Source: Verrucomicrobiota bacterium
GTDB taxonomy: Bacteria > Verrucomicrobiota > Verrucomicrobiia > Limisphaerales > AAA164-E04
Length of the DNA: 64,000 bases
Assembly (NCBI GenBank): GCA_047947115.1
Contig: CP170459.1
Coordinates: 4,000,001 to 4,064,000 of the forward strand
Direction: 5' to 3'
This document shows positions 6,909-35,845 of this stretch, piece after piece (the first letter of the stretch is position 1; the number at the start of each line of letters is the position of its first letter). A program made the position numbers and the translations under genes. A model generated the notes under the pieces. The model was not told the DNA's origin, did no database searches, and worked only from the letters and a program-made list of their open reading frames with translations.

Positions 6909-7085
6909 CTTGGCTCGATCAAACGCTTTGAGTGCGCTTGTTGAATAGAAAAACAGGCTCTCCTAAAACGCGGATCAGACTGATCTGACAGTTCAGTCTG
7001 ATCCTGCCGATCAAAAACCTCCCCGCTTTCCCCGCTTGCACTGGCCGCATTCTTTTTTTAGCCTGTGTGCGTACCATTATTTGCC

Positions 7086-9647: not shown

Positions 9648-9658
9648 GTTCAAACGAC

Positions 9659-11146
9659 ATGATACCACCCACCCCAGCGGCAATAGAAAGAGGCTTAAGA
9701 ACCAATCGTCGCCATTTCTTCGCTCGTAATGCAACCGGCATCGGCACCGCCGCACTGGCATCCCTGCTCGACAAGGAGGGACTCATGGCGACAGAAAACC
9801 ATACCGAACCAAAATCGGGCATGCCCGGGTTGCCATCGATTCCTCATTTTGCGGGCAAAGCCAAGCGCATTATCTACCTGTTCCAGAACGGGGCTCCGAC
9901 CCACGTTGATTTGTTTGATTACAAACCAGGCATCATCAAGCAACACGGAAACCCAGTGCCTGAATCCTACTTCCAAGGCAAACGATTCAGCACCATGACA
10001 GGCGACCCAACGGGTAAACTCATGTTGCAACCCGTTGAACCCTTCAAGCAGCGGGGACAAAGTGGAGCATGGGTCAGTGAGTTCATGCCCCATACCGCCA
10101 GGATTGCGGATCAACTGTGTTTCGTGAAAAGCATGCACACCGACGCGGTGAACCATGCCCCTGCCATTTCCTTCTTTCTCAGCGGCGCTCAAATACCCGG
10201 AAGACCGACACTGGGAGCCTGGATGACCTATGGCCTGGGAGTGGAAAGTGACAACTTGCCCGGTTTTGTCGTCATGACTTCGGTGAGTAAAGGCACGACC
10301 TGTGGTCAGATTTTTTATGATTTTTACTGGGGTTCCGGTTTCCTTCCTTCCAAATACCAGGGCGTCAAGTTTCGTGGAGGCGGAAGTCCTGTTCTCTACA
10401 TTGAAGATCCGGCCGGGATGACTTCTTCTTTGAAACGTGGACTTTTGGATGACATCGGTAAAGTGAACCGATTGAAAATGAACCAAATTGGAGATCCGGA
10501 AATTGAAACGCGCATCGCCCAATACGAAATGGCCTACCGCATGCAAACGGGTGTCCCGGAATTGACAGATATCCGTCAAGAACCCCAGCACGTTCTCGAC
10601 CTTTATGGCCCACAGGTCAAGGAGCAAGGCACGTTTGCCTACAATTGCCTGATGGCTCGCCGACTGATTGAACGCGGGACTCGTTACGTGCAGGTGATGC
10701 ATGCGGGATGGGATCAACACAACAGCCTGACCACAGAACTTTACACCCAATGCAAAGACACTGACCAACCCAGCGCAGGACTGATCATTGACCTGCAACA
10801 ACGCGGTTTGCTGGAAGATACTTTGGTTGTCTGGGGGGGGGAGTTTGGACGCACGCCGTTCATTCAGGGTGACATCAACAACCGTCCGAAATGGGGACGT
10901 GATCATCATCCTTACGCCTTCACGGTCTGGATGGCTGGAGGTGGCATCAAACCGGGTGTTTCTTATGGAGCCTCGGATGAACTGGCCATGAATGCCGTGG
11001 AAAACCCCGTACACGTCCATGACCTGCAGGCCACCCTGCTCCATCAACTCGGCATCGATCACGAACGGTTAACCTATAGATTCCAGGGCCGCTATTACCG
11101 GCTCACCGACATCCATGGAAACGTTGTGAAGGACATCCTCTCATGA
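9659..11146 (+). CDS. DUF1501 family protein (Tat-exported)
   Basis: Twin-arginine [59 protein letters not shown]. Confidence 0.92.
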
Positions 11147-11988
11147 AATTCCCAATGATCAACACATCCAGGCCATCCGGGTTTACCCTCATCGAACTGC
11201 TCGTCGTCATAGCGATCATAGCCATCCTTGCCGGCATGCTTCTGCCAGCTTTGGGTAAAGCCAAACAGAAGGCTCATGGCATCTTTTGCATGAATAATCA
11301 CAAGCAGTTGACGCTTGGCTGGATGATGTATGCGGAAGACAATGAAGGCAATCTCCCTGCATCTTCCAACCAGGCATGGCTCAAAGGCCCAGAATGGACC
11401 GGAGGCGGCAACCTGGTGCTCCCCTGCAGTGGAGCAGACGATCACGACCCCAATGCTCCCGACAGCATCAAGGACAGTCCGCTCTGGTCTTATCTGAACT
11501 CCGAAACAGTGTTCAAATGCCCAGCCGATAAAAGCGCCTGTCGAGTGAATGGACAATTGATCCCACGCGTTCGCAGCATGTCGATGAACATGTGGCTGAA
11601 TGGTCCTGGTTGGGGCACTGCGCGCGGAGAAAACGGAAGAGGCTGGAAAAAGTTCTTCAAAATTGATTCCATCAATGATCCGGGCCCTTCCGAAACCTTT
11701 GTGTTCCTGGATGAACGCGAAGACAGTATCAACGATGGAACTTTTGTAGTGGACATGGCGGGATTTCGATCTGCGCCAAATCAATATCGCATCATCGACT
11801 ACCCTGCATCCTATCACAACGCAGCCGGTGGATTCTCCTTTGCCGATGGACATTCGGAGATTAAAAAATGGATTGATCCCCGGACGATGCCCTCCCTGAC
11901 CAAAGGGCAGGAAATTCCGCTCAATATTCCATCACCAGGCAACCCTGATGTTGCCTGGATGCAGGAAAAAGCCACGCGGCCGGAATGA
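11143..11988 (+). CDS. Prepilin-type cleavage/methylation protein with H-X9-DG domain
   Basis: [61 protein letters not shown] overlaps with both neighbours. Confidence 0.9.
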
Positions 11989-14609
11989 TATTACCTCCCA
12001 TCATTCACCAAACACACATGAGCCCCGTTCGATGGTCCATCTGCTTGATCCTGCTTCTTGTATGGGGGAGTTCATTTTCACATGCGGATAACCTGACATG
12101 GACGGACGAAATGACTGATTTCCTTGGGGATCATTGTTTCGAATGCCACGATGGTGAATTGGCAAAGGGCGGTTTGAATTTGGAGCCTCTCTCATTTTCC
12201 CTTTCTGACCGCGATTTGTTTGATCAATGGGTATTGATCCATGACCGGATTCAAAAAGGTGAAATGCCCCCGGCCAAACGTGATCGCCCGGAACCGGAGC
12301 TCAAGAACGACTTTGTCACCGCCCTATCCGATTCATTGATTGAACAAGATCAAGCCAACATCCGTGAACGCGGACGCACGTCCATTCGAAGGTTGAATCG
12401 TTATGAATATGAAAACAGCCTGCGGGAAGGATTGAAAGCTCCATGGTTACAAGTCGCAACCAAGCTACCCGAAGACGGAGTGGCCCATTTGTTCAACAAA
12501 ACCGGAGAAAGACTTGATGTATCGCACGTACAGATGACCAAATACCTGGAGACAGCTTTGGAAGCTCTTCGGACCTGTCTGCAAACGGTGGCTTACCCAA
12601 CATCCAAAAACAAGTTTTATGCGAGAGAAGAACCCGTCATGCAGAATTACCTGAAATACAGGTTCGGACAAATGGCCGCCACCCGTTCAAGCATTCCCCT
12701 GATTGGAACCACTCCGCAACCCGATATTATCCGCGGCATCGCTCCGGTGACGGTTGGTGAAAGTGATCCGGAAATCAGGGAACAAGAAGCGATGGGATTT
12801 GTCTCCGGCACCTACTCGGCCACCACGAAATACGATTTCACCCGCATGCAGATACCTGTGGACGGACGATACCGGTTGAGGCTGAAAAGTTACAGTTTCA
12901 TGGCAGGCCCCAATGGAGCCAGCGGCGGCAATGATCATGGATTGACCGGAGGCAACCGCGCATGGTGGCGCCCCAGCCGTACCTATGCCTTTCCTGGGTT
13001 TCGACCCGAACCCGTCACCTTGTATGCCCTGTCCAGCGGAGGCGACAGCAGATGGTTGACTACCTATGATGCGATGCCGGAACCTTCGATCTTCGAATGT
13101 GAGGTCGACCTGAAAAAGGACGAAACATTACGGCCCGACGCCGCGCGTCTGGTGCGAACACGCCCAGGATGGAAAGGCAACCCCAACGCCACCCGGGAAG
13201 GTATCCCTGGATTTGCACTGAACTGGCTCGAAGTGGAAGGTCCTTTGCATGATTCCTGGCCACCGCCTTGTTATGATGTTCTTTTTGCGGATCTCCCTTT
13301 CGAGATACATGCCGAAGACCAGGTTCAGGTGACACCTGGCAATGAGGAAAAAGATGCACATCGTTTGTTGAGGCGATTTGTTGGACGCATGCTCAGGCGA
13401 GTTGAATCAGAATCCATTGAAATCACACCTTACCTGAATGTTTTCCATCAAGCACGTGCATTGGGAGATTCGTTTACGGATGGCATGCTGGCTGCATACG
13501 CCAGCCTCCTTTGTTCTACCGACTTTCTATATCTGAAGAAAGAGACTACCCCCGAAACACTCGCTTCCAGACTGGCCTTTTTCCTATGGAACGGCCCTCC
13601 TGACGAAGCCTTGCTCACCCAGAGCGAACTGCAACAACCCGACACTTTGAAAAAGGAAACAGAAAGATTGCTGGGCGATAAAAGATCACAGCGCTTTGTG
13701 AACGCCTTTCTGGATTACTGGCTGGATTTGCGTGACATCCTCGCCAACTCTCCGGACGCACAACTTTATCCAGATTACTATTTGGACGAAATGCTGACAG
13801 AATCTTCCGTGCTGGAGACACGCATGTTTTTCGAAGAACTCATTCAAAGCAACTTGCCTGCATCGAACTTGATTGACTCGGATTTCACTTTTGTTAACGA
13901 ACGTCTGGCACAACATTACGGAATCAAAAACGAACAAACCGTCGCTATCCACCGGGTCTCACTTCCGGCTGATTCACCAAGGGGTGGGCTCCTGACACAG
14001 GCCAGCATCCTGAGGATCACGGCCAACGGCACCACGACTTCGCCTGTCGTGCGGGGCGCTTGGATCGGGGAACGCATTCTGGGCATGGAAATCCCCACAC
14101 CCCCTTCGAATGTGGGAGCCGTCGAACCGGATACACGCGGAGCCACCACCATCCGGGAACAACTGGAACTTCACCGCAAACACGTTTCCTGCAATGCATG
14201 CCACCAACACTTCGATCCGGTCGGGCTGGTGCTTGAGATCTTTGATATCGCGGGAGGATATCGAACACGCTACCGAGGATCAGGCGACCTGGGCGATCCG
14301 GTTGAGGGATTCGGAAAGAACGGTCATGCCTTCAATTTTCGTTTGGCAAAGCCGGTGGAATGTGGTGGTGAAATGGCGGATGGAACCCCCTTTGCCGATA
14401 TTGAAAGTATGAAACAAATACTGCTCCGAGATCAGCGACAAATCGCACGCAATTTGCTGCAACGCTTCATCGTTTTTGCCACCGGATCTCCCATTTCATT
14501 CAGTGAACGAACCATCCTGGAAACCATGCTCGATGCATGTAAACACTTAAACTACGGAGTCCGGGACCTGATCCACGCAACGGTGCAAAGTTCACTCTTT
14601 ACCCGATAA
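11985..14609 (+). CDS. DUF1592/DUF1588/DUF1587 (PSD-domain) cytochrome-like protein
   Basis: N-terminal CFECH and [54 protein letters not shown]. Confidence 0.88.
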
Positions 14610-22655: not shown

Positions 22656-24101
22656 ATGCATTTAGAAGATTACGAAACGGGCGAGTATTACGACGAATTA
22701 TTCGCCAAACCTGGCGAAGCCAGACCAGCAGCGAGACCGCTCATCGACCACCTGAAACGCCTTCCCAACGAAGAACTTCTTCAAAGACAGCGTGCAGCGG
22801 AATTGTCCATGATGCGCATGGGCATTACCTTCAATGTTTACAGTGATAACCAGGGAGTGGAAAAAACTTTTCCCTTCGACCTGATACCCCGGATCATTCC
22901 CGGCAGCGAATGGAAACACATTGAAGAAGGTCTGAAACAACGCATTTATGCCCTGAATCTGTTCATCCACGACCTTTATCACGAACAGAAAATCCTGAAG
23001 TCAGGTATCGTTCCAGAGGATCTGCTGATGTCTTCCAAAGGATTCCGCCCCCAGTGTGTCGGCGTCAAACCTCCCAAGGACATTTGGATCCATATTACAG
23101 GCACGGATCTGGTTCGGCATTCGGACGGAGTGGTCTATGTGCTCGAAGATAATTTGCGATGCCCATCGGGAGTCAGTTATGTGCTCGAGAACCGGCACCT
23201 AATGAAGAACTTGTTCCCGGGCGTATTCGATACCGGAAAAATAAGATCGGTCGATTCCTACCCATTTCAACTGCGGGATGCTCTGGATTACTTGGTGCAA
23301 AAAACCTCGAACAACCCCAAATGTGTGGTCCTGACTCCGGGACCTTTCAACTCGGCTTACTTTGAGCACAGTTTTCTTGCCCAGCAGTTGGGTGCGGAGC
23401 TGGTTATTGGAGACGATCTGGTGGTTTTTGAGGACAAGGTCTGGATGCGCACCACCCAGGGTTTTGAGCGTGTGGATGTCATATACCGACGTATCGACGA
23501 TGATTTCCTGGATCCGGAAGCTTTTCGAGAAGATTCCATGTTGGGAGTTCCTGGATTGATGCGTGCTTACAAGGCAGGGAACATCGCCCTCGCGAACGCT
23601 CCCGGTTGCGGTGTGGCCGACGACAAAGTCATTTATGCCTACGTGCCGGAAATTATCAAGTATTATACCGGCGAAGAGGCCATCCTGCCCAATGTGCCGA
23701 CCTATGTTTGTTCTGATCCGCAGCAACTTAAGTATGTGTTGGAACACATGCCGGAACTGGTGGTCAAAGCTGCGAATGAGAGTGGAGGCTACGGGTTGAT
23801 AGTGGGTCCGGCCTCAACAAAGCAGGAAATCGCAGCTTTCGCGGAAAAGGTAAAGGCCAACCCTCGTAACTACATCGCCCAACCCACGTTGTCACTGTCA
23901 AGAGTGCCAACTATCTGTGACGGCAAACTTGAGGGGCGTCATGTGGATTTAAGACCCTATGTGCTATACGGAGAAAATATCCATGTGCTGCCGGGAGGAC
24001 TGACACGCGTCGCCCTTAAGAAGGGTTCCCTGGTGGTGAACTCTTCTCAAGGCGGTGGCAGCAAGGACACCTGGGTGATGGAGGATCAAGCAGTATGTTA
24101 A
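22656..24101 (+). CDS. Circularly permuted ATP-grasp type 2 protein (DUF404/DUF407)
   Basis: [102 protein letters not shown]. Confidence 0.95.
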
Positions 24102-25129
24102 GTCGAGTTGCAGATTCCCTATATTGGATGAGCCGTTACATGGAGAGGGCCGACAATGTGGCCCGGTTCATCAGTGTCAACCTGCATCTCATGCTCGATT
24201 CCGATGTAGGAGAAGAACAACAGTGGCTCCCACTGATCCACACCTCGGGAGACCATGAAGCATTTTTCAAAAAGCACGATGTTGCGTCTCAGGTCAACGT
24301 GGTTCATTTTCTGGCCTTTGACGAATCCAACCCCAACTCCATTCTCTCATGCCTCCGCAGTGCCAGAGAAAATGCCCGCACAATCCGTGAAATCATCACC
24401 TCTTCCATGTGGCAACAGGTGAATGAATTTTATCTTTTCGTTCAAGAATCGGTTTCACGCAGGGAATCACTGGAATCCCTGAACCGTTTCTTTGTTCAAA
24501 TTCGCCGTGGAACAGCCACTTTCATGGGGTTAACGGATTCAACATTGACACGTGGCGATGCCTGGCATTTTTCGCATCTTGGCCGCATGTTGGAACGGGC
24601 CGATAAGACATCCAGAATTCTTGATGTCAAATACTTCATTCTCCTTAAATCGGTGTCGGAGGTGGGAGCTCCCATCGATGACATTCAGTGGGGGGCGGTA
24701 TTACGCTCAGCCAGCGCCTTCGAAATGTATCGAAAGCAATACGTGCGGGTGGTTCCCGTTCATGTGGTGGATTTCCTGCTGTTCGATCACGCATTTCCCA
24801 GATCTGTGCGTTATTGCCTGGCTTCCGCACGCAGTTCGCTGCACGCCATTTCCGGCACATCGGAACTGCAATGTCACAATATGGCGGAGCGCATACTGGG
24901 ATCGGTTTGTTCGGATCTGGTCTATTCCAAGGTTGATCATGTCATTGAATCCGGTCTGCATGAATACATTGACCACCTTCAGTCCAAAATGAATGAGGTG
25001 GGAAAAGAAGTGTTTGAAACCTTTTTCGCGCGCAAAATACCCCGTAACACCCAATCCAACGTTTTTCGCGCCAAGCATGGTTCACATGACGTTTTTATGG
25101 GAGGTGGTTCCCAAATCAATTTGCAATAA
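24095..25129 (+). CDS. Alpha-E domain protein (DUF403)
   Basis: [48 protein letters not shown]; overlaps the upstream stop. Confidence 0.93.
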
Positions 25130-25164
25130 CATCCACCGCTTTTTTACTTACAGATTTTCAATTT

Positions 25165-28100
25165 ATGTCTATCCATGTCGCCCTGAATCATCAGAGCATT
25201 TACGCTTACGATCGACCGGTCACACATCATCCGCACCTGATCCGGCTGCGTCCGGCACCGCACTGTCGCACCAGAGTGATTTCCTATTCACTGAAACTCT
25301 CATCGAAGGACCATTTCCTCAACTGGCAACAGGATCCGTTTGGCAATTACCTTGCCCGAAGCGTGTTCCAAAAGCCTTTGAAAGACCTCCGTATCGAAGT
25401 TGATCTCGTCGCGGAGATGGCGGTGCACAATCCATTTGATTTTTTCCTCGAATCATATGCCGAACAATTTCCATTCAAATATGAAACATGGCTCCAGAAG
25501 GAATTACGCCCGTACTTGGAAACTCCCGATCGTACACCGTGCTTCCTGAAATTCGCCCGCAGCATTGATCAGAAAAAAATCCACACGGTGGATTTCCTGG
25601 TCCAACTCAATCAAAGGCTGAACAAGGAAATCAAATATCTCATCCGGCTCGAACCCGGTGTGCAAACCCCGGAGGAAACATTGACCAAACAATCGGGTTC
25701 CTGCAGGGATTCGGCATGGTTGATGGTGCAGCTTCTCAGATGGCTGGGGCTTGCCGCACGCTTTGCATCGGGTTACCTGATCCAATTGAAAGCCGACCTC
25801 AAATCTCTGGACGGACCTTCCGGTACAGAAGTTGATTTCACGGATCTCCATGCATGGTGCGAAGTGTATCTGCCCGGTGCAGGATGGATCGGTTTGGACC
25901 CAACCTCCGGCCTGTTGGCTGGAGAGGGGCACATCCCTCTGGCCTGTACCCCTGATCCTACCGGAGCAGCCCCCATCACTGGGTCGACCGATCTCTGCAA
26001 GGTGAAATTCAAGCATTCGATGCAGGTTTCCCGCATATACGAATCGCCACGCGTCACTCTTCCCTATGAGGAAACCGTCTGGAAGCAAATCCGCTCCTTG
26101 GGTGACCGAGTAGATGCGCGCCTGCGACAGGGAGATATCCGACTCACCATGGGCGGTGAACCTACCTTTGTCAGCATTGATGACATGGACGGGGACGAAT
26201 GGAATTATACAGCCCTCAGCGATAAAAAGCTCACGATTGCCAAAGAACTTTCCTGGCGTTTAAAAAGCAAGCTGGCTAAAGGAGGTTTATTGCACCATGG
26301 CCAAGGCAAGTGGTATCCAGGAGAATCACTGCCACGTTGGGCCCTGAGTTGCTACTGGAGGAAGAATGGACTTCCGGTGTGGGAAAATCCGGCTTTGTTG
26401 GCATGGAAAGAGGCATCGGGCAGCGCCACACAGGACGATGCCAAACGATTTGCTCATACGCTGACAGAACTCTTGAATCTGGATGACAAACACATTCTCC
26501 CAGCCTACGAAGACATTTGGTATTACCTGTGGCGAGAACGTCGATTACCCTCCAATGTGGATCCGCTTCAATCCAAATTGAGCGAACCAGAAGAACGCAA
26601 GCGTCTGGCCAAAGTATTCGAACAGGGGCTGGACAATATTGTTGGCTACACCCTCCCCTTGCGCTTGCATCCATTGACAGGAGCCTGGGAAACGGGTCCG
26701 TGGTTCTTGAGAAGGGAATATTTATTCCTGACTCCCGGGGACTCCCCGATGGGATATCGACTGCCGCTCGACTCACTTCCCTGGCAGGATCCATCGAGTG
26801 TGGAATCCCTGCACGCTCCCGATCCAATGACTCTTGGGAAGGAAACTGGTTCAACTTCAGGTTTTGAAACGGGCAAACACAAATACGATGGATACCACAA
26901 GACCCTATCCGCCACCGATAGAGGAATTGGGGTATCGCAAGGCATCCAATCCTCCGCAAGCTCAGGTCACCCACACGAGGCCGAACTCAAATGGCAACAC
27001 CCATCTGGCTCGACAGATGCTGATCCATCATCGAACCAGTCCATCCCGCAACAAATCGTCCGGACCGCACTGTGCATCGAACCTAGAAACGGCATTTTAC
27101 ACATCTTCATGCCTCCCATGCCGACAGCAACTGATTATTTCAGATTGATCCAGGCAGTCGAAGCCACCGCGAGGAAATATGATACACCCGTGATCATTGA
27201 AGGGGAAACACCCCCATTCGATCCGGCGTATCAATCCATGAAAGTAACGCCAGACCCGGGGGTCATTGAAGTAAACGTGCCCCCATCCGACAACTGGGAG
27301 GAATTGTGCCACATGACCGAAACGGTTTATGAGGAAGCTCGTCAATCCAGATTGGGCACTGAAAAATTCCTGATGGATGGACGCCACACCGGTACCGGCG
27401 GCGGCAACCACATGACACTGGGCGGGACAACTCCTTCCGACAGCCCTTTTTTGCGCCGTCCGGACCTGCTGAAAAGTCTCGTGACTTATTGGCAAAACCA
27501 CCCGTCACTTAGTTTTCTGTTCAGTGGGATGTTTATCGGACCGACCAGTCAGCATCCTCGAGTAGATGAAGCACGCAACGATTCGCTCTACGAATTGGAG
27601 ATCGCCAATCGGCAGGTTTCAAAAAAGCAACCCATCGCCCCCTGGTTGGTAGACCGTATCTACCGGAATTTGTTGGTAGATTTGACCGGTAACACGCATC
27701 GTGCGGAATTCTGCATTGACAAGATGTTTTCCCCGGACAGCGCTTCGGGACGCCTTGGCTTGCTCGAAATGCGGGCATTTGAAATGCCCCCCCACCATCG
27801 CATGAGTTTGGTGCAACAACTGTTGTTGCGATCAATCATCTGCCGTGTATGGGAAGATCCATACGAACAACCCATGGTACGTTGGGGCACGCAAATCCAC
27901 GATCGGTTCATGCTGCCTTATTTCAATCAACTTGATTTCCAGGACGTCATCCAGGATTTACAGGACCATGACTTGCCCATGGATTTCGAATGGTTCGCCC
28001 CACATTTTGAATTTCGCTTTCCCAAGCATGGCGAAATCACCCGTCGAGCCATTCATCTCGAACTGCGGCACGCCCTGGAACCCTGGAACGTATTGGGAGA

Positions 28101-28575
28101 ACAAGGCAGCCTGGGTGGCACTTCCCGATTCGTTGATTCCTCTCTGGAGCGACTCCAGATCAAAGCTTCAGGCCTGATCGATTCCCGTTATTGGGTCACA
28201 TGCAATGGCAGACGTATCCCTCTTCATCCAACCGGAGTATTAGGAGAGTTTGTCGCGGGTGTCAGATACCGTGCATGGCAACCCGGTGAATGCCTCCATC
28301 CCACCATTGGTGTGCACGCGCCATTAGTGTTTGACATTCACGACTCCTGGAACAATCGCTCAATTGGCGGCTGTCAATACCACGTGGGTGATCCTGCAGG
28401 AAGGAACCACGAGCAGTTACCTATAAATGCCTTTGAAGCCGAAAGTCGTCGATTAGCACGTTTCTTCAACATCGGCCACACAGGAGGCGCCTGTTCCCCT
28501 CTTCCCATGGAGCAAAACCGTGATTTCCCCATGACACTGGACCTGCGAATGTATCCACAACAAAAAGAACTCTGA
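25165..28575 (+). CDS. Transglutaminase-like domain fused to DUF2126 putative COOH-NH2 (GS/GCS-fold) amidoligase
   Basis: N-terminal IRLRPAPH and WQQDPFGN; triad GSCRD / DLHAW / GLDPT; MGGEPTF, TPDPGVIEVN, GTGGGNH, HRAEFCIDK, GRLGLLEMRAFEMPP, FPMTLDLR. Confidence 0.92.
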   Translation: MSIHVALNHQSIYAYDRPVTHHPHLIRLRPAPHCRTRVISYSLKLSSKDHFLNWQQDPFGNYLARSVFQKPLKDLRIEVDLVAEMAVHNPFDFFLESYAEQFPFKYETWLQKELRPYLETPDRTPCFLKFARSIDQKKIHTVDFLVQLNQRLNKEIKYLIRLEPGVQTPEETLTKQSGSCRDSAWLMVQLLRWLGLAARFASGYLIQLKADLKSLDGPSGTEVDFTDLHAWCEVYLPGAGWIGLDPTSGLLAGEGHIPLACTPDPTGAAPITGSTDLCKVKFKHSMQVSRIYESPRVTLPYEETVWKQIRSLGDRVDARLRQGDIRLTMGGEPTFVSIDDMDGDEWNYTALSDKKLTIAKELSWRLKSKLAKGGLLHHGQGKWYPGESLPRWALSCYWRKNGLPVWENPALLAWKEASGSATQDDAKRFAHTLTELLNLDDKHILPAYEDIWYYLWRERRLPSNVDPLQSKLSEPEERKRLAKVFEQGLDNIVGYTLPLRLHPLTGAWETGPWFLRREYLFLTPGDSPMGYRLPLDSLPWQDPSSVESLHAPDPMTLGKETGSTSGFETGKHKYDGYHKTLSATDRGIGVSQGIQSSASSGHPHEAELKWQHPSGSTDADPSSNQSIPQQIVRTALCIEPRNGILHIFMPPMPTATDYFRLIQAVEATARKYDTPVIIEGETPPFDPAYQSMKVTPDPGVIEVNVPPSDNWEELCHMTETVYEEARQSRLGTEKFLMDGRHTGTGGGNHMTLGGTTPSDSPFLRRPDLLKSLVTYWQNHPSLSFLFSGMFIGPTSQHPRVDEARNDSLYELEIANRQVSKKQPIAPWLVDRIYRNLLVDLTGNTHRAEFCIDKMFSPDSASGRLGLLEMRAFEMPPHHRMSLVQQLLLRSIICRVWEDPYEQPMVRWGTQIHDRFMLPYFNQLDFQDVIQDLQDHDLPMDFEWFAPHFEFRFPKHGEITRRAIHLELRHALEPWNVLGEQGSLGGTSRFVDSSLERLQIKASGLIDSRYWVTCNGRRIPLHPTGVLGEFVAGVRYRAWQPGECLHPTIGVHAPLVFDIHDSWNNRSIGGCQYHVGDPAGRNHEQLPINAFEAESRRLARFFNIGHTGGACSPLPMEQNRDFPMTLDLRMYPQQKEL

Positions 28576-28645
28576 TAAACTACTACAAAATAAGTCTGTT
28601 TGAAAATTCACCTTTCCTGAAGACGATTGGCCTGTCATTTTCCTG

Positions 28646-31147
28646 ATGTCGACCATGGAACCAATCACGATAGATCCAGCTTCTCAATTATTGTCAGGGT
28701 GGCAGCCTGCCTCGAACACCTTTGATGAAGTACGAGATCCAAATGGAACCATCCGTCATCATTGGAAACATTTTTTCGATGGACTGGGGGGGCTGGGAAA
28801 AGAAGCGTTGGACGATCGTTGGAATCTAAGCCGTCGTATCTTGAGGAACCATGGAGCAAGTTATCACGTCACGACCAAGGAAGGTGAGAGTGAGCGGCCG
28901 TGGGAACTGGACCTGCTGCCATTCATCATCAGTGAAGCGGAATGGCAGCACATCGAAACAGGCATCATCCAGCGGGCAAGACTGCACAATCTGATCCTGC
29001 AGGATATTTATGCCCGGCCTCAATACTTGTTGAGGAACGGAGACATCCCCCCGGCACTGCTCTTTGCCAACCCTAACTTTTTGAGAGCCTGCCGGGGCGT
29101 CCCCATTCCGGGGAACCAATACCTTCAACTGCACGCTGTGGACCTTGCACGTTCACCAGACGGCACTTGGTGGGCATTGGATGATCGCATGCAGAGTCCC
29201 AACGGATTGGGGTATGCCCTGGAAAACCGTTCCATCATCGGTCGCATACATCGAGATCTGTTTGATCGGGATAAGGTCGCAGGCCTTAGCTCATTTTTCA
29301 ACATTCTGCGCCAGAACTTCCTGGCCTTGAACTGTGTCCATGACGGGTATCCACGCGTGGTGTTTTTGACTCCGGGCGTCCACAGTGATGCACATTACGA
29401 GCACACACTTCTCGCGAGGTATCTGGGATTCACACTCGTCGAAGGAGGCGACCTGACAGTTCGCAATGGAGACGTTTTTCTTAAAACAGTCGAAGGCCCC
29501 CAAAAAGTGAATGTGGTCGTCCGGCGCGTTAACGACACATTGTGTGACCCTACTGAATTGGATCCCTCCTCCTATCAGGGAACGCCGGGCCTTGTCCAGG
29601 CAACACGCATGGGCAAAGTTGCCTTGGCAAACGCATTGGGATCGGCTGTCGTCGAAACACCCGCCCTGCTCCCCTGCCTCACTCCACTTGCCAGACAAAT
29701 GCTTGGACAGGATCTCCTGATACCCAATGCAGAAACTTGGTGGTGTGGGGACGTACGCCATTGCCGATACGTGTTGGATCATCTGGACCGATTGATCATC
29801 AAGGCGGCTTTTCCCACAAAAAATAGATCAACCTTCAGCGGAATGGAACTCTCCGGCAAGGAACTGGCATCCCTGCGAACAAAGATTCAGGCACGCCCAT
29901 ATAACTATGTTGGACAGGCCCCCATCGAATTGTCCTCGGCACCCGTGTGGAACGGTCAATCCGTCGAATCAAGACCCATCGTACTCCGGGTGTTTGTGGC
30001 AGCCAATAAGGATTCTTATGCCGTTTTGCCGGGTGGATTGACTAAAGTCTCGCCATCCAGCCATACCCCTGTGAAAGGATTAAGGCTGGCAGGCGGAAGT
30101 AAGGATACCTGGATCGCTCGGGATTTGATTCCTCCACACAACGAAAGCCCCATCATCCTGGAATCACGGCCTGCCGGACGCATGCAAACAGGTGTTCCCA
30201 GCCGTACCGCCGATAATTTTTTCTGGTTGGGACGCTATACCGAACGGTTGGAACATCTCCTCCAAATGCTTCGCTCCGTTGCCACCCTACTAACGGAAGA
30301 GCCAGAACCACGAGCCTTGTTACAAGCCAAGGAGATTGTCGCGGCATTACACAGAATGGGGTTCCCACCCTGCGGAGACGCCACTGTGGAAAGTCCGGAT
30401 GGAATGTTAACTGCACTTTTACAAGTGTTCTATCAACCAACCATCACCGGTGGAGGTGCCGATTTGTGCCAAAGGCTGATTTATATCGCCTCATCACTCA
30501 GGGATCGTTTTTCCACTGCCGCATGGCAGGTGATGACTTCGATTAAACAGTATCCAGGGAAACAGCCATTACGCTATCGGGGAGAACACTTGTTGACTTC
30601 CACTAGGGAACTCATGACTCTCCTGTCAGCACTTTCTGGAATCGAGTCCGAAAACATCGTGCGAGGTCATGAATGGCGATTTTTGGATTTCGGAAAGCGG
30701 CTCGAGCGGTCTCAAAATCTTGCCATCCTCATGCGCCAGGTCCTGGGACAAACGATCGACAGAAATTTACTGCTCAATCCCCTTTTGGAAATCTGTGACA
30801 GTTCCATGACCTATCGCCGTCAGCATTATTCAGAACCAGAACTGGAATCAGTCATGTCATCGCTGTTGCTGGACGACAAAAACCCCAGGGCTTTGAAATT
30901 CAATATCCAAGTCATGATGGAACACAGCATGCATCTTTCCAGTCAGACACAACCAAACGGACCATCTCAGATAAACGTCGCACTGAAGCACATGGAACTG
31001 TTGTTTGAACCTACCTGCCGTGATTGGAAATCTTCTGCGGATAAAATCATCCCTGTTGATACACTGGACACACAACTGGAAGCATTGGTAAAGGCTTGTG
31101 AAGAAACATCGAACTTATTGACCCATCATTATTTCAACCTGGCTTAA
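28646..31147 (+). CDS. Circularly permuted ATP-grasp + alpha-E fusion protein
   Basis: RPWELDLLP, GIIQRARL, DRMQSPNGLGYALENR, LARYLGFTLVEGGDL, NALGS, GSKDTW, then PSRTADNFFWLGRYTER and GKRLER, DSSMTYRR. Confidence 0.92.
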   Translation: MSTMEPITIDPASQLLSGWQPASNTFDEVRDPNGTIRHHWKHFFDGLGGLGKEALDDRWNLSRRILRNHGASYHVTTKEGESERPWELDLLPFIISEAEWQHIETGIIQRARLHNLILQDIYARPQYLLRNGDIPPALLFANPNFLRACRGVPIPGNQYLQLHAVDLARSPDGTWWALDDRMQSPNGLGYALENRSIIGRIHRDLFDRDKVAGLSSFFNILRQNFLALNCVHDGYPRVVFLTPGVHSDAHYEHTLLARYLGFTLVEGGDLTVRNGDVFLKTVEGPQKVNVVVRRVNDTLCDPTELDPSSYQGTPGLVQATRMGKVALANALGSAVVETPALLPCLTPLARQMLGQDLLIPNAETWWCGDVRHCRYVLDHLDRLIIKAAFPTKNRSTFSGMELSGKELASLRTKIQARPYNYVGQAPIELSSAPVWNGQSVESRPIVLRVFVAANKDSYAVLPGGLTKVSPSSHTPVKGLRLAGGSKDTWIARDLIPPHNESPIILESRPAGRMQTGVPSRTADNFFWLGRYTERLEHLLQMLRSVATLLTEEPEPRALLQAKEIVAALHRMGFPPCGDATVESPDGMLTALLQVFYQPTITGGGADLCQRLIYIASSLRDRFSTAAWQVMTSIKQYPGKQPLRYRGEHLLTSTRELMTLLSALSGIESENIVRGHEWRFLDFGKRLERSQNLAILMRQVLGQTIDRNLLLNPLLEICDSSMTYRRQHYSEPELESVMSSLLLDDKNPRALKFNIQVMMEHSMHLSSQTQPNGPSQINVALKHMELLFEPTCRDWKSSADKIIPVDTLDTQLEALVKACEETSNLLTHHYFNLA

Positions 31148-31159
31148 AACTCAACCGCG

Positions 31160-32074
31160 ATGAAATACCATTGCTATAAAATCAGCCACAGCACACGTTA
31201 TCAATATTCAGCCATCGTTTCCGAAGGGGTACATCTGATCAAATTGAAGCCGAGAACCTTCCCGAATCAAAATTGCCTCGAATATTCACTGAACATTCTG
31301 CCGGCGGATGCACAGTTTTTTGACTTCACGGATTACTTTGGCAATTCCAGCACACATCTGACTGTATCGCGCCCACACCAGGAACTCATCGTGACCGCTC
31401 AATGCCGCGTGGCCGTGGGACTACCCTTCTGGCCTGCCCCGGATGAAACCCCTTCCTGGGAAGTGGTCAGAAACCAATTAAAAAAGGATCGTGGTGCCTT
31501 GACGCTGGAAGCCGTGGAATACGTGTTTGATTCTCCATTGATCCAATCAAACAAGGCAGTTGCGAAATTTGCCGAAGCATCATTCACCCCGGGCAGGCCT
31601 ATCTTCGAGGCAGGTTTGAATCTCACGCAGCGTATCTTCAATGATTTCCAGTTTGATCCTGCCGCAACAGAAGTCGCAACACCTGTGGCGACGGTCCTGT
31701 CACAGCGCAAGGGAGTGTGTCAGGATTTTGCTCACCTGGCGATTGCTTGTTTCCGTTCCCTGGGATTACCCGCAAAATACGTCAGTGGCTACCTTGAAAC
31801 CGATCCTCCGCCGGGCATACCAAAGCTAATCGGAGTGGATGCATCCCACGCATGGCTGGCCTTTTATTGCCCGGGAATCGGATGGATCGAACTGGATCCG
31901 ACAAATGGCTGCATCCCGGCCATGCGTCACATCAAAATCGGGTTCGGCAGAGACTATGGTGATATTGCCCCCCTGACTGGCATCATCAAAGGACCGGATG
32001 ATCACACGCTTCAGATTTCCGTCGATGTGATGGCGGACGGTGAGCTGCAGGAATATGCCGCCAACCCAATTTAA
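31160..32074 (+). CDS. Transglutaminase-like protein (Bact_transglu_N + core)
   Basis: HSTRYQY, DYFGN, triad GVCQDFAH / ASHAW / ELDPTN, GRDYGDIAP. Confidence 0.93.
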   Translation: MKYHCYKISHSTRYQYSAIVSEGVHLIKLKPRTFPNQNCLEYSLNILPADAQFFDFTDYFGNSSTHLTVSRPHQELIVTAQCRVAVGLPFWPAPDETPSWEVVRNQLKKDRGALTLEAVEYVFDSPLIQSNKAVAKFAEASFTPGRPIFEAGLNLTQRIFNDFQFDPAATEVATPVATVLSQRKGVCQDFAHLAIACFRSLGLPAKYVSGYLETDPPPGIPKLIGVDASHAWLAFYCPGIGWIELDPTNGCIPAMRHIKIGFGRDYGDIAPLTGIIKGPDDHTLQISVDVMADGELQEYAANPI

Positions 32075-32373
32075 TGGTGTGTCAGTAAATCGATACGATG
32101 CGGTTCTCTTCCAAGTTGGATCACCTGGTTTGGTTCCTGAAAGTCCAGTGCAGAAAGCCCCAAGGACGAAACCCCGAATTCCTCCAGCACATTGACAATT
32201 TCTTCCGCGTTTTCAGGAGATGGATGAATGAAAAAATAGATATCCGTCTTGTAATCACAAGACCATGCCAGGGCTTGCGCGCCCACGATGAGGAACTCAA
32301 CTTTGTGAGAGTTCAACAATGTGATTAACTCTTTCAAGTCCTGGTAGAGTTTCACTTTCGCTTGCATTCCCAA
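32071..32373 (-). pseudogene. Truncated small nucleotidyltransferase-like gene
   Basis: Resembles the ~150-aa family (DxKE...LN...VE.LIVG..AL, PS.ENA, VIQLG..P.RIDLLT). It ends right after RIDLLT and the catalytic-loop region appears degraded (AWSCDYKTDIYF). Confidence 0.6.
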
Positions 32374-32628: not shown

Positions 32629-33435
32629 ATGAGGTTTTTAAAATTAAATCCATTGTTGGGTGGGCTTTGTGTGGCCTCCCTGGTGGTTTGGGCTGGTTTC
32701 GGCGGGACATCCTGCGGTACCACTCATCAAAGGGCGGTGGTTCGGCTTCCCCAGATCGAGGGGGCCGCTTTTGTCGGGAATGCCGCTTGTTCGGATTGTC
32801 ATACGAATATCGTGGAGACGTTTCCCGCGAGTCCGCATGCGCGGTTCCACCTCGCTGAAGCAAATCATTCCGGGGAGTCCGGATGCGAGTCCTGTCATGG
32901 GGCCGGCAGTCTTCATGTCAAGGCCGGTGGAGGTAAAGGGGTGTTTATTCATAATCCGGGGAACAGTCCGGATTCCTGCCTGGAGTGTCATCGGGAAATT
33001 CATGCAAAATTCAGTCTACCGAATCGACATCCGGTGATGGAGGGGCAATTGAATTGTGTCGATTGCCATGATCCACACGGACGCGACATCTTCAAACCGT
33101 CCTCCTCAAATGGTCTTGCATTTGCCCGCTTGAATCAAAATTGTTCGGAATGCCACCAGGAGCAGGCCCGCAATTTTGTGTTCGAACATGAGGCCATGCG
33201 GGAGGGGTGCACTGAATGTCATGACCCCCATGGTTCGGTGAATCCAAAGATGCTGGTTCAGCGTGATTCCAATCTTTGCTTGAAGTGTCATGCCCAGACT
33301 CAATTCGCCGGTTCCGGGGATATTTTCATCGGCAAGGAACCGCATGGTTTCAATATGCAGGCGGGCGGTTGCTGGACCGCTGGTTGTCACACACAGGTCC
33401 ATGGGTCCATGGTCGATCCCAAATTAAGATTTTAA
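32629..33435 (+). CDS. MtrA/DmsE-like multiheme cytochrome c (7 CxxCH + 1 CX4CH)
   Basis: CSDCH, CESCH, CLECH, CVDCH, CSECH, CTECH, CLKCH, CWTAGCH; family-typical FVG..C, HP...G, CHDPHGS, FVFEH, QVHGS; N-terminal signal with possible lipobox GTSC. Confidence 0.88.
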   Translation: MRFLKLNPLLGGLCVASLVVWAGFGGTSCGTTHQRAVVRLPQIEGAAFVGNAACSDCHTNIVETFPASPHARFHLAEANHSGESGCESCHGAGSLHVKAGGGKGVFIHNPGNSPDSCLECHREIHAKFSLPNRHPVMEGQLNCVDCHDPHGRDIFKPSSSNGLAFARLNQNCSECHQEQARNFVFEHEAMREGCTECHDPHGSVNPKMLVQRDSNLCLKCHAQTQFAGSGDIFIGKEPHGFNMQAGGCWTAGCHTQVHGSMVDPKLRF

Positions 33436-33451
33436 CCTCAGGAGCCCCCTT

Positions 33452-35845
33452 ATGAGATACCATCAACAATCCTTTCTTATGCGCTCCATTCGACGAACCT
33501 TCGGTTGGCAACTAGCCGCTATGATGCTGGGTGGTGCCGGTTTCACCTTGGGATATGGACAAGAATTGCCACCTCCGGCGGATCGCAAGGTTGACTTCAC
33601 AACCGATATTCTTCCGATCCTCAAGGAAGCCTGCTTTCAATGTCATGGACCGGAAGAAGCCAAAGGCGATTTCCGAATGACGACCCGGGAAAACCTGCTG
33701 AAAGAAGGCGATTACGGTGTCAATGTGATCCCTGGCAACAGCGCTGAAAGTCCACTGATCCAGTTCGTCGCTCATCTGGAGGAAGATTCGGAAATGCCCC
33801 CGATCGGCAAGGGAGACAAATTATCCGATGAAAAAATCGGCTTGTTGAGGGCATGGATTGATCAGGGCGTGGCATTTGAAGAGATATCGGAGGAATCGTT
33901 TTACTTCCGGGTCACTCCTGAGTTTCGATTCATTGGAGTGGATGGAAACAAGTCCGCTTTTCGTGAGCATAATTGGATGCGAGATGGAGTGAATGGTGGT
34001 TTACATGATTTTGAATGGAAACAAACCATGGAGGGCGGGAAAACCTTCAGCGGTTCCGGACGTGTGATGGCCCCTTATGATCAGTACGCCATCGAAGCGG
34101 AAATCACGCAGCGGGATTTGGGGTTCTTCCGTTTTGGTTTGAACCAGTCACGATCATATGACGATCCTTATGGCGGTTACTCCCCTGCTTTCGGTCTGGG
34201 CCCCTGGGCGGTAGGGCGTGATCTGCATACTGATTTTTCCAACGCTTGGTTCGAATTGGGATTGGATCGTCCCGACACGCCAAAATTTACATTCGGATAC
34301 GAATACCGGGCACGAGACGGTGCCAAGTCCATGTTGCAATGGGGGCCGGCTTTTGATGCGGCTTTCAACGGCCATAATGTTTATCCCGCCTGGAAGCGAT
34401 TGGATCAGGAAACTCATATCATCACACTGAACGTGGAGCACACGTGGAACGGGTTTCGGATCGAAGACAATTTAAGAGGAGAGTTCTATCAACAGAACAA
34501 CACTCTGTACACGGGAGATTTCATCAATGCTGGAGATGCCCTTCCGGCGACGGTTTCGACTGAAAATGATGATTACGATCATTTCCAGGGCTCGAATGCG
34601 CTTACCGTGGAAAAACGGTTCAAACCGTGGTGGCTTGCCAGTGGCGGTTACTATTATTCTCACCTGAGTGGCGATGCCAAATTGTCACTGGGCAACTTTG
34701 ATCCGAGCAATCCTGCTGCGGCTGGCCTGCCCTTTGATTCACGCGGCATTCAACTCAGTTCCGAGTCGCACATCGTCAATATCAACAGTCTGCTTGGCCC
34801 CTGGAAACAGTGGACGGCCTATGGTGGGGTCCAGACGGAATGGACCCGCCGTAAGGGTACCGGAAACACCACCTTTTTCGGTGTCCCAACCACACTTGGC
34901 ACCAACACGGATCGTTTTCAAATCGAAGAGAATTTCGGCATTCGAAACACCAGCCTTCCCAACACCATCATTTACACCGATGTGAGGCTTCAGCAGGAAT
35001 CCATAGGGCAATCGGAGAGCGGACTCCTGAACGACGGTTTCGATGCGCAAGATGATTTCATGCGCGACACCGATGCCACCGGACGACATGCCCGATGGGA
35101 TCTTGGAACCACCCTGTCCCCTTGGGACAACTGGACGTTTCAACCGAACTACGGATACAAGCGCCGACATCATGACTTCAAGCATCTGCTGGACACGGAC
35201 CGCGGTCCGGAGCCGGGCAACGGCTATCCAGCTGCTTTGCGAGAACGTGAAACCGAAGGGCAGGATTGGGGAATGACTGTGGGATGGAAGCCGGTTCGTT
35301 GGTTAAAGACTTCGCTGGCCTACGAAGGTGAGCAAGCCGATTATCGCACCGACATCAATGCGCTGACGCTGTTCGGAGTTGCCTACCCCGCTGGATCGAC
35401 TTTGGCAGGGAACTATGACAGTCACACCTATCGATTCACCACGACACTGAGTCCGGCTCAACGTTGGTATTGGACCGGCAGCACGAGCTACACGGACATG
35501 CGCATCGTTTCGAGCATGAACGACAACACCTCGATTGCTCCTTATGACGGTGAATTGTTGAGTCTGTTCACATCATGGACATTTCTCTACAGCCCAAGCA
35601 CGACGCTCCAATCCAGCTACACCTTCAATCACGCGAACTACGGCCAGACTTTGCCCCTCGGATTGCCGATGGGCTCCGAATTCGATCAACATGCCTGGCG
35701 ATGCGATGTGCGCAAAAAGCTTGGAGAATCCGATTCGCTTGGGATTCAATACGCCTATTTCCGTTATCGCGATGACCTCGCCGCAGGTTTTCTGGACTAC
35801 GACGCGCATGGCATTTTTATCACCTGGAGCCGAATCTTCCAGTAA
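33452..35845 (+). CDS. MtrB/PioB-like outer-membrane beta-barrel with N-terminal fused planctomycete-type cytochrome c domain
   Basis: Signal peptide; VDFTTDILPILKEACFQCHG...EMPP...LLRAWIDQG; then GVDGNKSAFREH and ~650 aa of amphipathic aromatic-rich strands ending AHGIFITWSRIFQ; 16 bp after the multiheme gene. Confidence 0.8.
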   Translation: MRYHQQSFLMRSIRRTFGWQLAAMMLGGAGFTLGYGQELPPPADRKVDFTTDILPILKEACFQCHGPEEAKGDFRMTTRENLLKEGDYGVNVIPGNSAESPLIQFVAHLEEDSEMPPIGKGDKLSDEKIGLLRAWIDQGVAFEEISEESFYFRVTPEFRFIGVDGNKSAFREHNWMRDGVNGGLHDFEWKQTMEGGKTFSGSGRVMAPYDQYAIEAEITQRDLGFFRFGLNQSRSYDDPYGGYSPAFGLGPWAVGRDLHTDFSNAWFELGLDRPDTPKFTFGYEYRARDGAKSMLQWGPAFDAAFNGHNVYPAWKRLDQETHIITLNVEHTWNGFRIEDNLRGEFYQQNNTLYTGDFINAGDALPATVSTENDDYDHFQGSNALTVEKRFKPWWLASGGYYYSHLSGDAKLSLGNFDPSNPAAAGLPFDSRGIQLSSESHIVNINSLLGPWKQWTAYGGVQTEWTRRKGTGNTTFFGVPTTLGTNTDRFQIEENFGIRNTSLPNTIIYTDVRLQQESIGQSESGLLNDGFDAQDDFMRDTDATGRHARWDLGTTLSPWDNWTFQPNYGYKRRHHDFKHLLDTDRGPEPGNGYPAALRERETEGQDWGMTVGWKPVRWLKTSLAYEGEQADYRTDINALTLFGVAYPAGSTLAGNYDSHTYRFTTTLSPAQRWYWTGSTSYTDMRIVSSMNDNTSIAPYDGELLSLFTSWTFLYSPSTTLQSSYTFNHANYGQTLPLGLPMGSEFDQHAWRCDVRKKLGESDSLGIQYAYFRYRDDLAAGFLDYDAHGIFITWSRIFQ

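Follow-up and report, generated by a model that had tools for sequence, protein, structure and literature searches.

Porin–cytochrome wires decide which microbes can exchange electrons with minerals, humics, and electrodes. We analyzed a 64,000-nucleotide (nt) stretch of DNA, here the window, from a Verrucomicrobiota bacterium of the order Limisphaerales (contig CP170459.1, positions 4,000,001 to 4,064,000), in which two plus-strand open reading frames (ORFs) lie head to tail with a gap of 16 nt. ORF A encodes an octaheme c-type cytochrome, and ORF B fuses a PSCyt1 monoheme domain to a predicted outer-membrane barrel. A first-pass annotation made from the letters alone had described a gene pair 16 nt apart with a second product of 797 aa, and both ORFs are confirmed. 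Their features, in window coordinates, are as follows.

32629..33435, plus strand: ORF A, octaheme c-type cytochrome related to MtrA/DmsE, predicted lipoprotein, 268 aa
32713..32715, plus strand: lipobox-like Cys29, predicted lipid attachment site of ORF A, read from the sequence
33370..33390, plus strand: eighth heme motif of ORF A, noncanonical CWTAGCH, aligned with MtrA heme 10
33452..35845, plus strand: ORF B, fusion of a signal peptide, a PSCyt1 monoheme domain, and a predicted 26-strand MtrB-fold outer-membrane barrel, 797 aa
33452..33559, plus strand: likely Sec signal peptide of ORF B, about residues 1-36, read from the sequence
33560..33871, plus strand: PSCyt1 monoheme domain of ORF B, with CxxCH at 33632-33646 and distal Met (MPP) at 33794
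33872..33895, plus strand: short, poorly conserved linker from the last domain helix to barrel strand 1, model residues 102-112
33896..35842, plus strand: predicted 26-strand barrel of ORF B, from the structure model

ORF A contains seven CxxCH motifs and a final CX4CH (CWTAGCH), and two homologs have a canonical CxxCH at this eighth site. Sixteen His residues are invariant among 79 aligned copies, the number expected for eight bis-His hemes. The top sequence match in the PDB is MtrA (chain A of 6R2Q; E 6.4e-24), with ORF A residues 114-261 aligned to MtrA 180-324, the region of MtrA hemes 5-10. Hemes 3-8 of ORF A thus correspond to MtrA hemes 5-10 by alignment, hemes 1-2 resemble MtrA hemes 1-2 by eye, and MtrA hemes 3-4 therefore appear to be missing. 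The earlier designation "MtrA/DmsE-like" is backed by the homology with MtrA, and ORF A stays below the profile cutoffs: the decaheme MtrA/DmsE profile TIGR03508 gave 140.8 bits against a cutoff of 192.2, there are eight hemes rather than ten, and the best NCBIfam score, with the GSU2203 profile NF041028, also fell below its cutoff (163.8 vs. 325). By sequence reading, a lipobox-like Cys lies 23-25 residues ahead of heme 1 in 85/85 octaheme copies, and the residue at +2 of this Cys is Ser, Gly, or Ala in 74/79 and never Asp. The AlphaFold model of the octaheme alone had a predicted local distance difference test (pLDDT) score of 51 and no Foldseek match.

The N-terminal domain of ORF B matched Pfam PSCyt1 (PF07635) over residues 61-117 with 59.5 bits against a cutoff of 22, and the CFQCH from residue 61 (nt 33632) and the distal EMPP, with its Met at residue 115, are as first annotated. 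The two Cys and the His of the heme site and the distal MPP are invariant in 99/99 aligned rows (the window protein and 98 of 99 domain-bearing homologs), and the domain is predicted from these ligands to carry a His/Met heme. Homologs have variable N-termini ahead of a conserved LPPP, and the linker segment spans 24-31 residues across the 99 rows. Similarity to the PSCyt1 gene at 7065-9647 of the window, also noted at first pass, was recovered (41% identity over 103 aa, E 2e-22), and a special kinship with that gene was rejected: the genome holds 62 PSCyt1 matches, and the nearest relative of the fused domain is a free-standing 152-aa signal-peptide monoheme (G000:C1:4932163-4932621, G000 being the window's own genome; L210:10164-10619), with 99 bits vs. 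78 for the 7065 gene. In a tree of 108 columns, fused domains group with free-standing signal-peptide monohemes (Shimodaira–Hasegawa-like approximate likelihood ratio test [SH-aLRT] 82-93, weak data), and the 7065 domain falls elsewhere. This grouping indicates that the subfamily of the fused domain also exists as a soluble cytochrome. The 152-aa monoheme is present in 21/21 same-family genomes at 64-93% identity and would be the most straightforward protein in which to measure the function of a PSCyt1 domain. In one homolog (P0249), the barrel bears two PSCyt1 domains in tandem.

An AlphaFold model of ORF B built from 99 sequences (mean pLDDT 91.7, predicted template modeling score 0.83) consists of a helical N-terminal domain, an approximately 11-residue linker, and, by our own count, 26 strands, in keeping with the large barrel first proposed. 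The first strands are short and a helix lies between strands 1 and 2, both of which are features of MtrB (PMC7198977; this and the other papers named here are cited from their accessible parts). The best Foldseek match was MtrB (6R2Q_B; E 1.9e-14, TM 0.59/0.68), and comparison of the model with MtrB gave a Z of 22.2 and a root-mean-square deviation of 3.8 Å over 567 residues at 12% identity, the next entry having a Z of 14.3. At the sequence level, the Pfam MtrB_PioB family (PF11854) did not match ORF B, the GSU2204 profile NF041027 had no match at the locus at E ≤ 1, and a PDB sequence search with the barrel profile returned weak heme-domain matches only. Three barrel homologs, selected for a precomputed MtrB_PioB label, narrowly passed PF11854 (23.2-28 bits vs. 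a cutoff of 23), and five others failed it in the same scan. Together, the fold match and the narrow passes identify the barrel as a remote MtrB relative. The first-pass view of an MtrAB-like porin–cytochrome pair is thus backed by the predicted fold and the cytochrome sequence, and of the three profile families that it had named, PSCyt1 is recovered, MtrB_PioB does not match, and DmsE stays below its cutoff. In the model, odd strands are followed by long loops and even strands by tight turns, a pattern that would place the start of strand 1, and with it the heme domain, in the periplasm; a periplasmic heme domain is accordingly what the model predicts, as had been thought probable.

The fusion is widespread among relatives. 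A search with the barrel alone returned 105 proteins, 99 of them with the heme domain and six beginning inside the domain or the barrel. The barrel of the ORF B family was found in 55/61 related genomes, with the full-length fusion verified in 43/61, and the fusion is kept, complete or partial, in 21/21 genomes of the window's own family. Across the phylum, the barrel was detected in 31/401 genomes, and four of the 30 loci fetched were fused, including that of the window. A profile search of cluster representatives retrieved 587 proteins at E ≤ 1e-30. Seven clusters at the head of the Atlas list have no label besides "Planctomycete cytochrome C family protein." The Verrucomicrobiota barrel family is otherwise heme-less: in a tree of 113 of its members, a branch with support 91 sets the fused barrels apart, and in a tree of 147 they fall within a group of 80 with support 100, together with two proteins cut at the N-terminus and a single barrel that seems intact yet lacks the domain. 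A single origin of the fusion is likely from these groupings, although not proven because both trees (FastTree) are unrooted. Three estuary RNA-library runs from three studies yielded single contigs that span both the gene junction and the domain–barrel junction, which excludes an assembly chimera; these contigs, taken from runs with a word share of at least 0.2, bear on contiguity and not on expression level, a single transcript, or transcription.

Several observations accompany this distribution. In runs X1 and X3, contigs are near-identical to the window until approximately 34640 and then diverge sharply (window 34640-35300), which suggests that the 3′ half of the barrel gene has been exchanged between strains. 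At three loci (L069, L089, and L093) the fused barrel gene is broken into at least two frames, as sequencing errors or pseudogenes could explain. A locus from outside the order (L177, genome G096) has a fused barrel, a partner with eight canonical CxxCH motifs, and a one-heme gene directly downstream. Some fused loci stand under non-Verrucomicrobia titles at NCBI, and the range of the fusion may extend beyond the phylum.

A heme-less form of the barrel is also encoded in the window's own genome (G000:463186-465507). Its locus (G000:C1:459547-469027; L204) contains an octaheme, a class I monoheme, a pentaheme, a 4Fe-4S protein, an NrfD-type protein, and a divergent nonaheme with TSP3-like repeats; it resembles a complete membrane-to-surface chain and is present in only 3/22 own-family genomes searched. 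We compared neighbors at loci with at least 3 kb of flank on each side, excluding 26 fused and seven heme-less loci with short flanks and three duplicates or nonhits, and assigning four broken or cut loci to the fused class. In 48/48 fused and 41/41 heme-less loci, the gene directly upstream of the barrel encodes the octaheme, whereas an additional small monoheme or multiheme occurs within approximately 3 kb of 2/48 fused vs. 38/41 heme-less loci. Most fused loci were found through the heme-domain pattern, which selects for the fusion and not for its neighbors. Genome content follows the same division: among the 61 genomes, with five having partial barrels set aside, the class I carrier family (E ≤ 1.6e-30) was detected in 22/22 genomes with a heme-less barrel, 1/28 with the fusion only, and 0/6 without a barrel, and outside the own family in 19/19 heme-less-barrel vs. 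1/12 fused-only genomes. Five further genomes all agree, four having both the carrier and a heme-less barrel and one having neither the carrier nor any barrel except the fusion. Such a complementary distribution of fusion and separate carrier is the pattern predicted by substitution, and it supports, at the level of gene content, the fused heme being a built-in carrier that replaces a separate small cytochrome.

We propose that the octaheme and the barrel would form a heme wire across the outer membrane, with the octaheme inside the predicted 26-strand barrel. In MtrAB, heme A1 reaches approximately 20 Å into the periplasm, and the surface-exposed heme is A10 (PMC7198977); the octaheme would be inserted in the same way as MtrA, from the periplasm, with heme 8 reaching the surface and the lipid of the protein lodged in the inner leaflet. 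Two hemes shorter than MtrA, it would protrude less, leaving heme 1 near the rim and within reach of the tethered domain. The PSCyt1 heme would then be a fixed ninth, terminal heme at the periplasmic end, by the barrel rim, where its His/Met heme could substitute for the dedicated class I carrier and dock diffusible periplasmic partners such as the free-standing sister cytochrome. Because a tether of approximately 11 residues cannot cross the periplasm, it would be a docking heme rather than a shuttle. The domain had earlier been interpreted as a tethered equivalent of MtoD/PioC; the complementary distribution backs its role as a stand-in, and the short tether removes the shuttling. A link to a large cytochrome pool of the Planctomycetes–Verrucomicrobia–Chlamydiae (PVC) group, also part of that interpretation, is not required, and the need for a large PSCyt1 pool was rejected, since the fusion persists in genomes with both barrel types that have as few as 2-5 PSCyt1 matches. 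We hold a conduit with a tethered terminal heme to be likely.

Flow through this conduit would run chiefly into the cell, with soluble donors, for example Fe(II) chelates or reduced humics, feeding periplasmic cytochromes, heme-copper oxidases, and O2 respiration. Fused-only genomes encode ActD in 26/28 cases and a heme-copper oxidase in 27/28, and a NapC/NirT-like hexaheme or NrfD of the tested type occurs in 6/28 of them vs. 21/22 heme-less-barrel genomes. No MtrC-like gene adjoins the pair. Class I cytochromes typically have potentials of approximately +200 to +250 mV, above MtrA-type hemes at 0 to −400 mV. From the oxidase and ActD content, the scarcity of quinol-linked modules, and the high class I potentials, we infer the direction and favor uptake toward O2 respiration; tethered terminal heme and inward flow taken together have, in our estimate, an even chance of being correct.

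Several points weigh against this account. An apparently intact barrel within the fused branch (P0242) has no heme domain, which is likely a loss. Twelve of the 22 heme-less-barrel genomes fed the carrier alignment, although the other ten still match; operon linkage may partly explain the co-occurrence of carrier and heme-less barrel; and the genomes, being related, do not count as independent samples, with one family contributing 16 of the 28 fused-only ones. Linkage and kinship both inflate the counts. The octaheme has eight hemes in the heme-less systems too, and a role for the fused heme as stand-in for the octaheme's two missing hemes was rejected on that ground. As to direction, the carrier of heme-less systems is also His/Met, so that ligation alone does not fix it, and electrons could enter an outward path from alternative complex III. 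Limisphaera isolates are Fe(III) reducers, and their genomes list both locus types, which were assigned to iron reduction (PMC13608581); soluble Fe(III) is reduced by MtrAB without MtrC (PMC7198977).

The same conduit could thus run outward, from quinol via alternative complex III or an unlinked quinol dehydrogenase to the tethered heme, the octaheme, and soluble Fe(III) chelates, humics, or other surface acceptors. In the Limisphaera genomes, whose hosts grow by Fe(III) reduction, a multiheme lipoprotein is listed beside a one-heme porin (PMC13608581), Verrucomicrobia porin–octaheme clusters are tied to humic-rich anoxic water (PMC5615132), Limisphaerales clusters are transcribed in deep peat (bioRxiv 10.64898/2026.05.27.727921), MtrAB by itself reduces soluble Fe(III) (PMC7198977), and NrfD modules exist in the window's own genome. 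However, neither tested quinol-linked module is present in 22/28 fused-only genomes, in the published anaerobic cases the heme-less locus and its accessory cytochromes are present as well or may be what is referred to, and a high-potential entry heme would narrow the usable acceptors. Outward flow is a possible but clearly less probable direction.

A nonrespiratory use of the conduction, such as sensing of outside redox conditions, metal reduction for uptake, or redox supply to surface or periplasmic polysaccharide-breakdown enzymes via the pool of PSCyt1 proteins, would suit the persistence of the pair, complete or partial, as an isolated two-gene unit in 21/21 own-family genomes. PSCyt1 matches in fused-only genomes number 8-86 (median 40), and PSCyt genes have been linked to carbohydrate use in oxic water (PMC5615132). 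Yet the octaheme is the only neighbor common to most fused loci, the fusion is kept where there are 2-5 PSCyt1 matches, and five genomes without the barrel have 34-71; we regard such a role as unlikely.

Still less probable is an arrangement like that of Cyc2, with the heme domain acting as the plug of its own barrel and the octaheme as a partner apart from it, at the surface or in the periplasm. Cyc2 likewise has one N-terminal CxxCH domain and a barrel on a single polypeptide (PMC6344600), and the octaheme, as a lipoprotein, could sit outside the barrel. Against this, the barrel is MtrB-sized and homologous to plug-less, heme-less barrels that are always paired with the same octaheme, and the last six hemes of the octaheme match the C-terminal region of MtrA, the part in contact with the lumen of MtrB. 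Random shuffling of a common domain (62 matches in the own genome) or an assembly chimera, the latter a concern of the first-pass annotation, is a negligible explanation given the domain on 99/105 barrel-search proteins with the other six N-terminally cut, the full-length fusion in 43/61 genomes, the junction-bridging RNA-library contigs from three runs, and the invariant heme ligands.

Among the 39 window ORFs scanned, the MtrC/OmcA and NapC/CymA families had no match except for a sub-cutoff MtrC-domain score on ORF A, as the first reading of the sequence had found, and 0/48 fused loci have another cytochrome of at least four hemes within approximately 3 kb. Besides the octaheme, no neighbor is common to most fused loci. 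The downstream Gfo/Idh/MocA gene (35865) was rejected as a part of the system, as it adjoins the barrel in same-genus loci only, and a promoter and terminator scan of the locus gave counts no higher than the shuffle level. Directly upstream, window 22656-32074 encodes circularly permuted ATP-grasp, alpha-E, transglutaminase-like, and DUF2126 proteins; one of these genes was tested and is absent beside other fused loci. A 100-aa ORF on the opposite strand (32071-32373, minus strand) has no Pfam match. Elsewhere in the window are a typical PVC PSCyt1-PSCyt2-PSD1 gene with DUF1501 (7065-11146) and a PSCyt3-type gene bearing its own PSCyt1 domain (11985-14609).

The conduit escapes the standard MtrA and MtrB profiles, yet is present at full length in at least 43/61 sampled genomes of one Verrucomicrobiota order, and many fusion-bearing genomes have oxygen-respiration genes and lack the two tested quinol-linked modules. 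More tentatively, it may be a stand-alone uptake conduit of nine hemes that has become fixed throughout an order of abundant aerobic heterotrophs, the PSCyt1 heme linking extracellular reductants to the PVC cytochrome network and O2 respiration. If so, common soil, freshwater, and coastal Limisphaerales would be unrecognized oxidizers of Fe(II) or reduced humics, and a PSCyt1 domain would have its first concrete job. PSCyt1 has no known function (PMC5615132) and dozens of copies per PVC genome, and the fusion gives a simple handle on it. Fused and heme-less loci are a natural two-gene experiment on the role of the periplasmic carrier for such a wire, and the direction of flow could be tested in cultured Limisphaera strains.

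Related clusters have been described before. Verrucomicrobia porins of at least 20 strands adjoin eight-heme cytochromes and were not recognized as MtrAB by sequence (PMC5615132), and this arrangement (He et al. 2017) is the one found here; such clusters are also listed as "other putative PCC" (PMC6344600), and a 2026 preprint reports a Limisphaerales porin–multiheme cluster (bioRxiv 10.64898/2026.05.27.727921). Matched by description only, these clusters very likely belong to the same barrel family. The words "fused" and "fusion" are absent from the main text of PMC5615132, as are "fused," "monoheme," and "PSCyt" from that of the preprint, whose supplements are possibly relevant. In Limisphaera, a two-gene locus encodes a Sec/signal peptidase II lipoprotein of 6-7 hemes and a 20-26-strand porin with one N-terminal heme motif, and a second locus pairs a 9-heme cytochrome with a porin that has no heme motif, as in the window's own genome (PMC13608581). 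By description, the former is probably this very cassette. That paper gives it one sentence and one table row with no experiments, does not identify the domain as PSCyt1, and calls the porin unrelated to MtrB while likening its heme motif to that of MtrB. The novelty first claimed for the exact architecture is therefore reduced, as it appears to be listed there; the pair, apparently with the one-heme porin too, is already mentioned in print, uncharacterized. Literature searches, with subscription papers outside their coverage, surfaced no study of the fused domain.

Among known systems, the pair resembles MtrAB in predicted 26-strand MtrB fold and in having a multiheme gene directly upstream of a large barrel gene. 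The heme-free sheath of MtrAB, MtoAB, and PioAB does not describe ORF B, whose invariant heme motif predicts a bound heme; the N-terminal motif of MtrB is CXXC, which is not a heme site. PioABC follows the plan of an MtrC-less porin–cytochrome pair served by a periplasmic monoheme. Shewanella MtrAB (6R2Q; PMC7198977) shares the gene order, the strand number predicted here, and a homologous cytochrome, and differs in having ten hemes rather than eight, whereas the present pair has a predicted lipid anchor, a barrel only 12% identical and with a monoheme domain, and no adjacent MtrC gene. MtoAB-MtoD-ImoA of Sideroxydans (PMC11511738) is likewise an MtrC-less pair with a periplasmic monoheme, a plan copied by the heme-less sister loci with their octaheme, barrel, approximately 110-aa monoheme, and NapC/NirT-like hexaheme. 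MtoD, however, is bis-His and separate (PMC11511738), whereas the monoheme here is barrel-fused, of PSCyt1 type with a His/Met motif, and has no adjacent quinol-linked gene. Cyc2, like ORF B, combines a single N-terminal c-heme motif with a barrel on one polypeptide, whereas Cyc2-like barrels have approximately 15 strands or ">10" and no MtrA partner (PMC6344600), in contrast to 26 strands and an always adjacent octaheme. OmcK/OmcL (GSU2203/GSU2204) of Geobacter is also a two-gene cytochrome–porin conduit with no adjacent periplasmic carrier (PMC10553843). It differs in that ORF A misses the NF041028 cutoff and NF041027 is without a match to this barrel. OmcL bears a CxxCH. By these comparisons, the conduit is one that would work like MtrAB and MtoAB with the carrier built in, stands outside their family by the decaheme and profile criteria, and is neither Cyc2 nor OmcKL.

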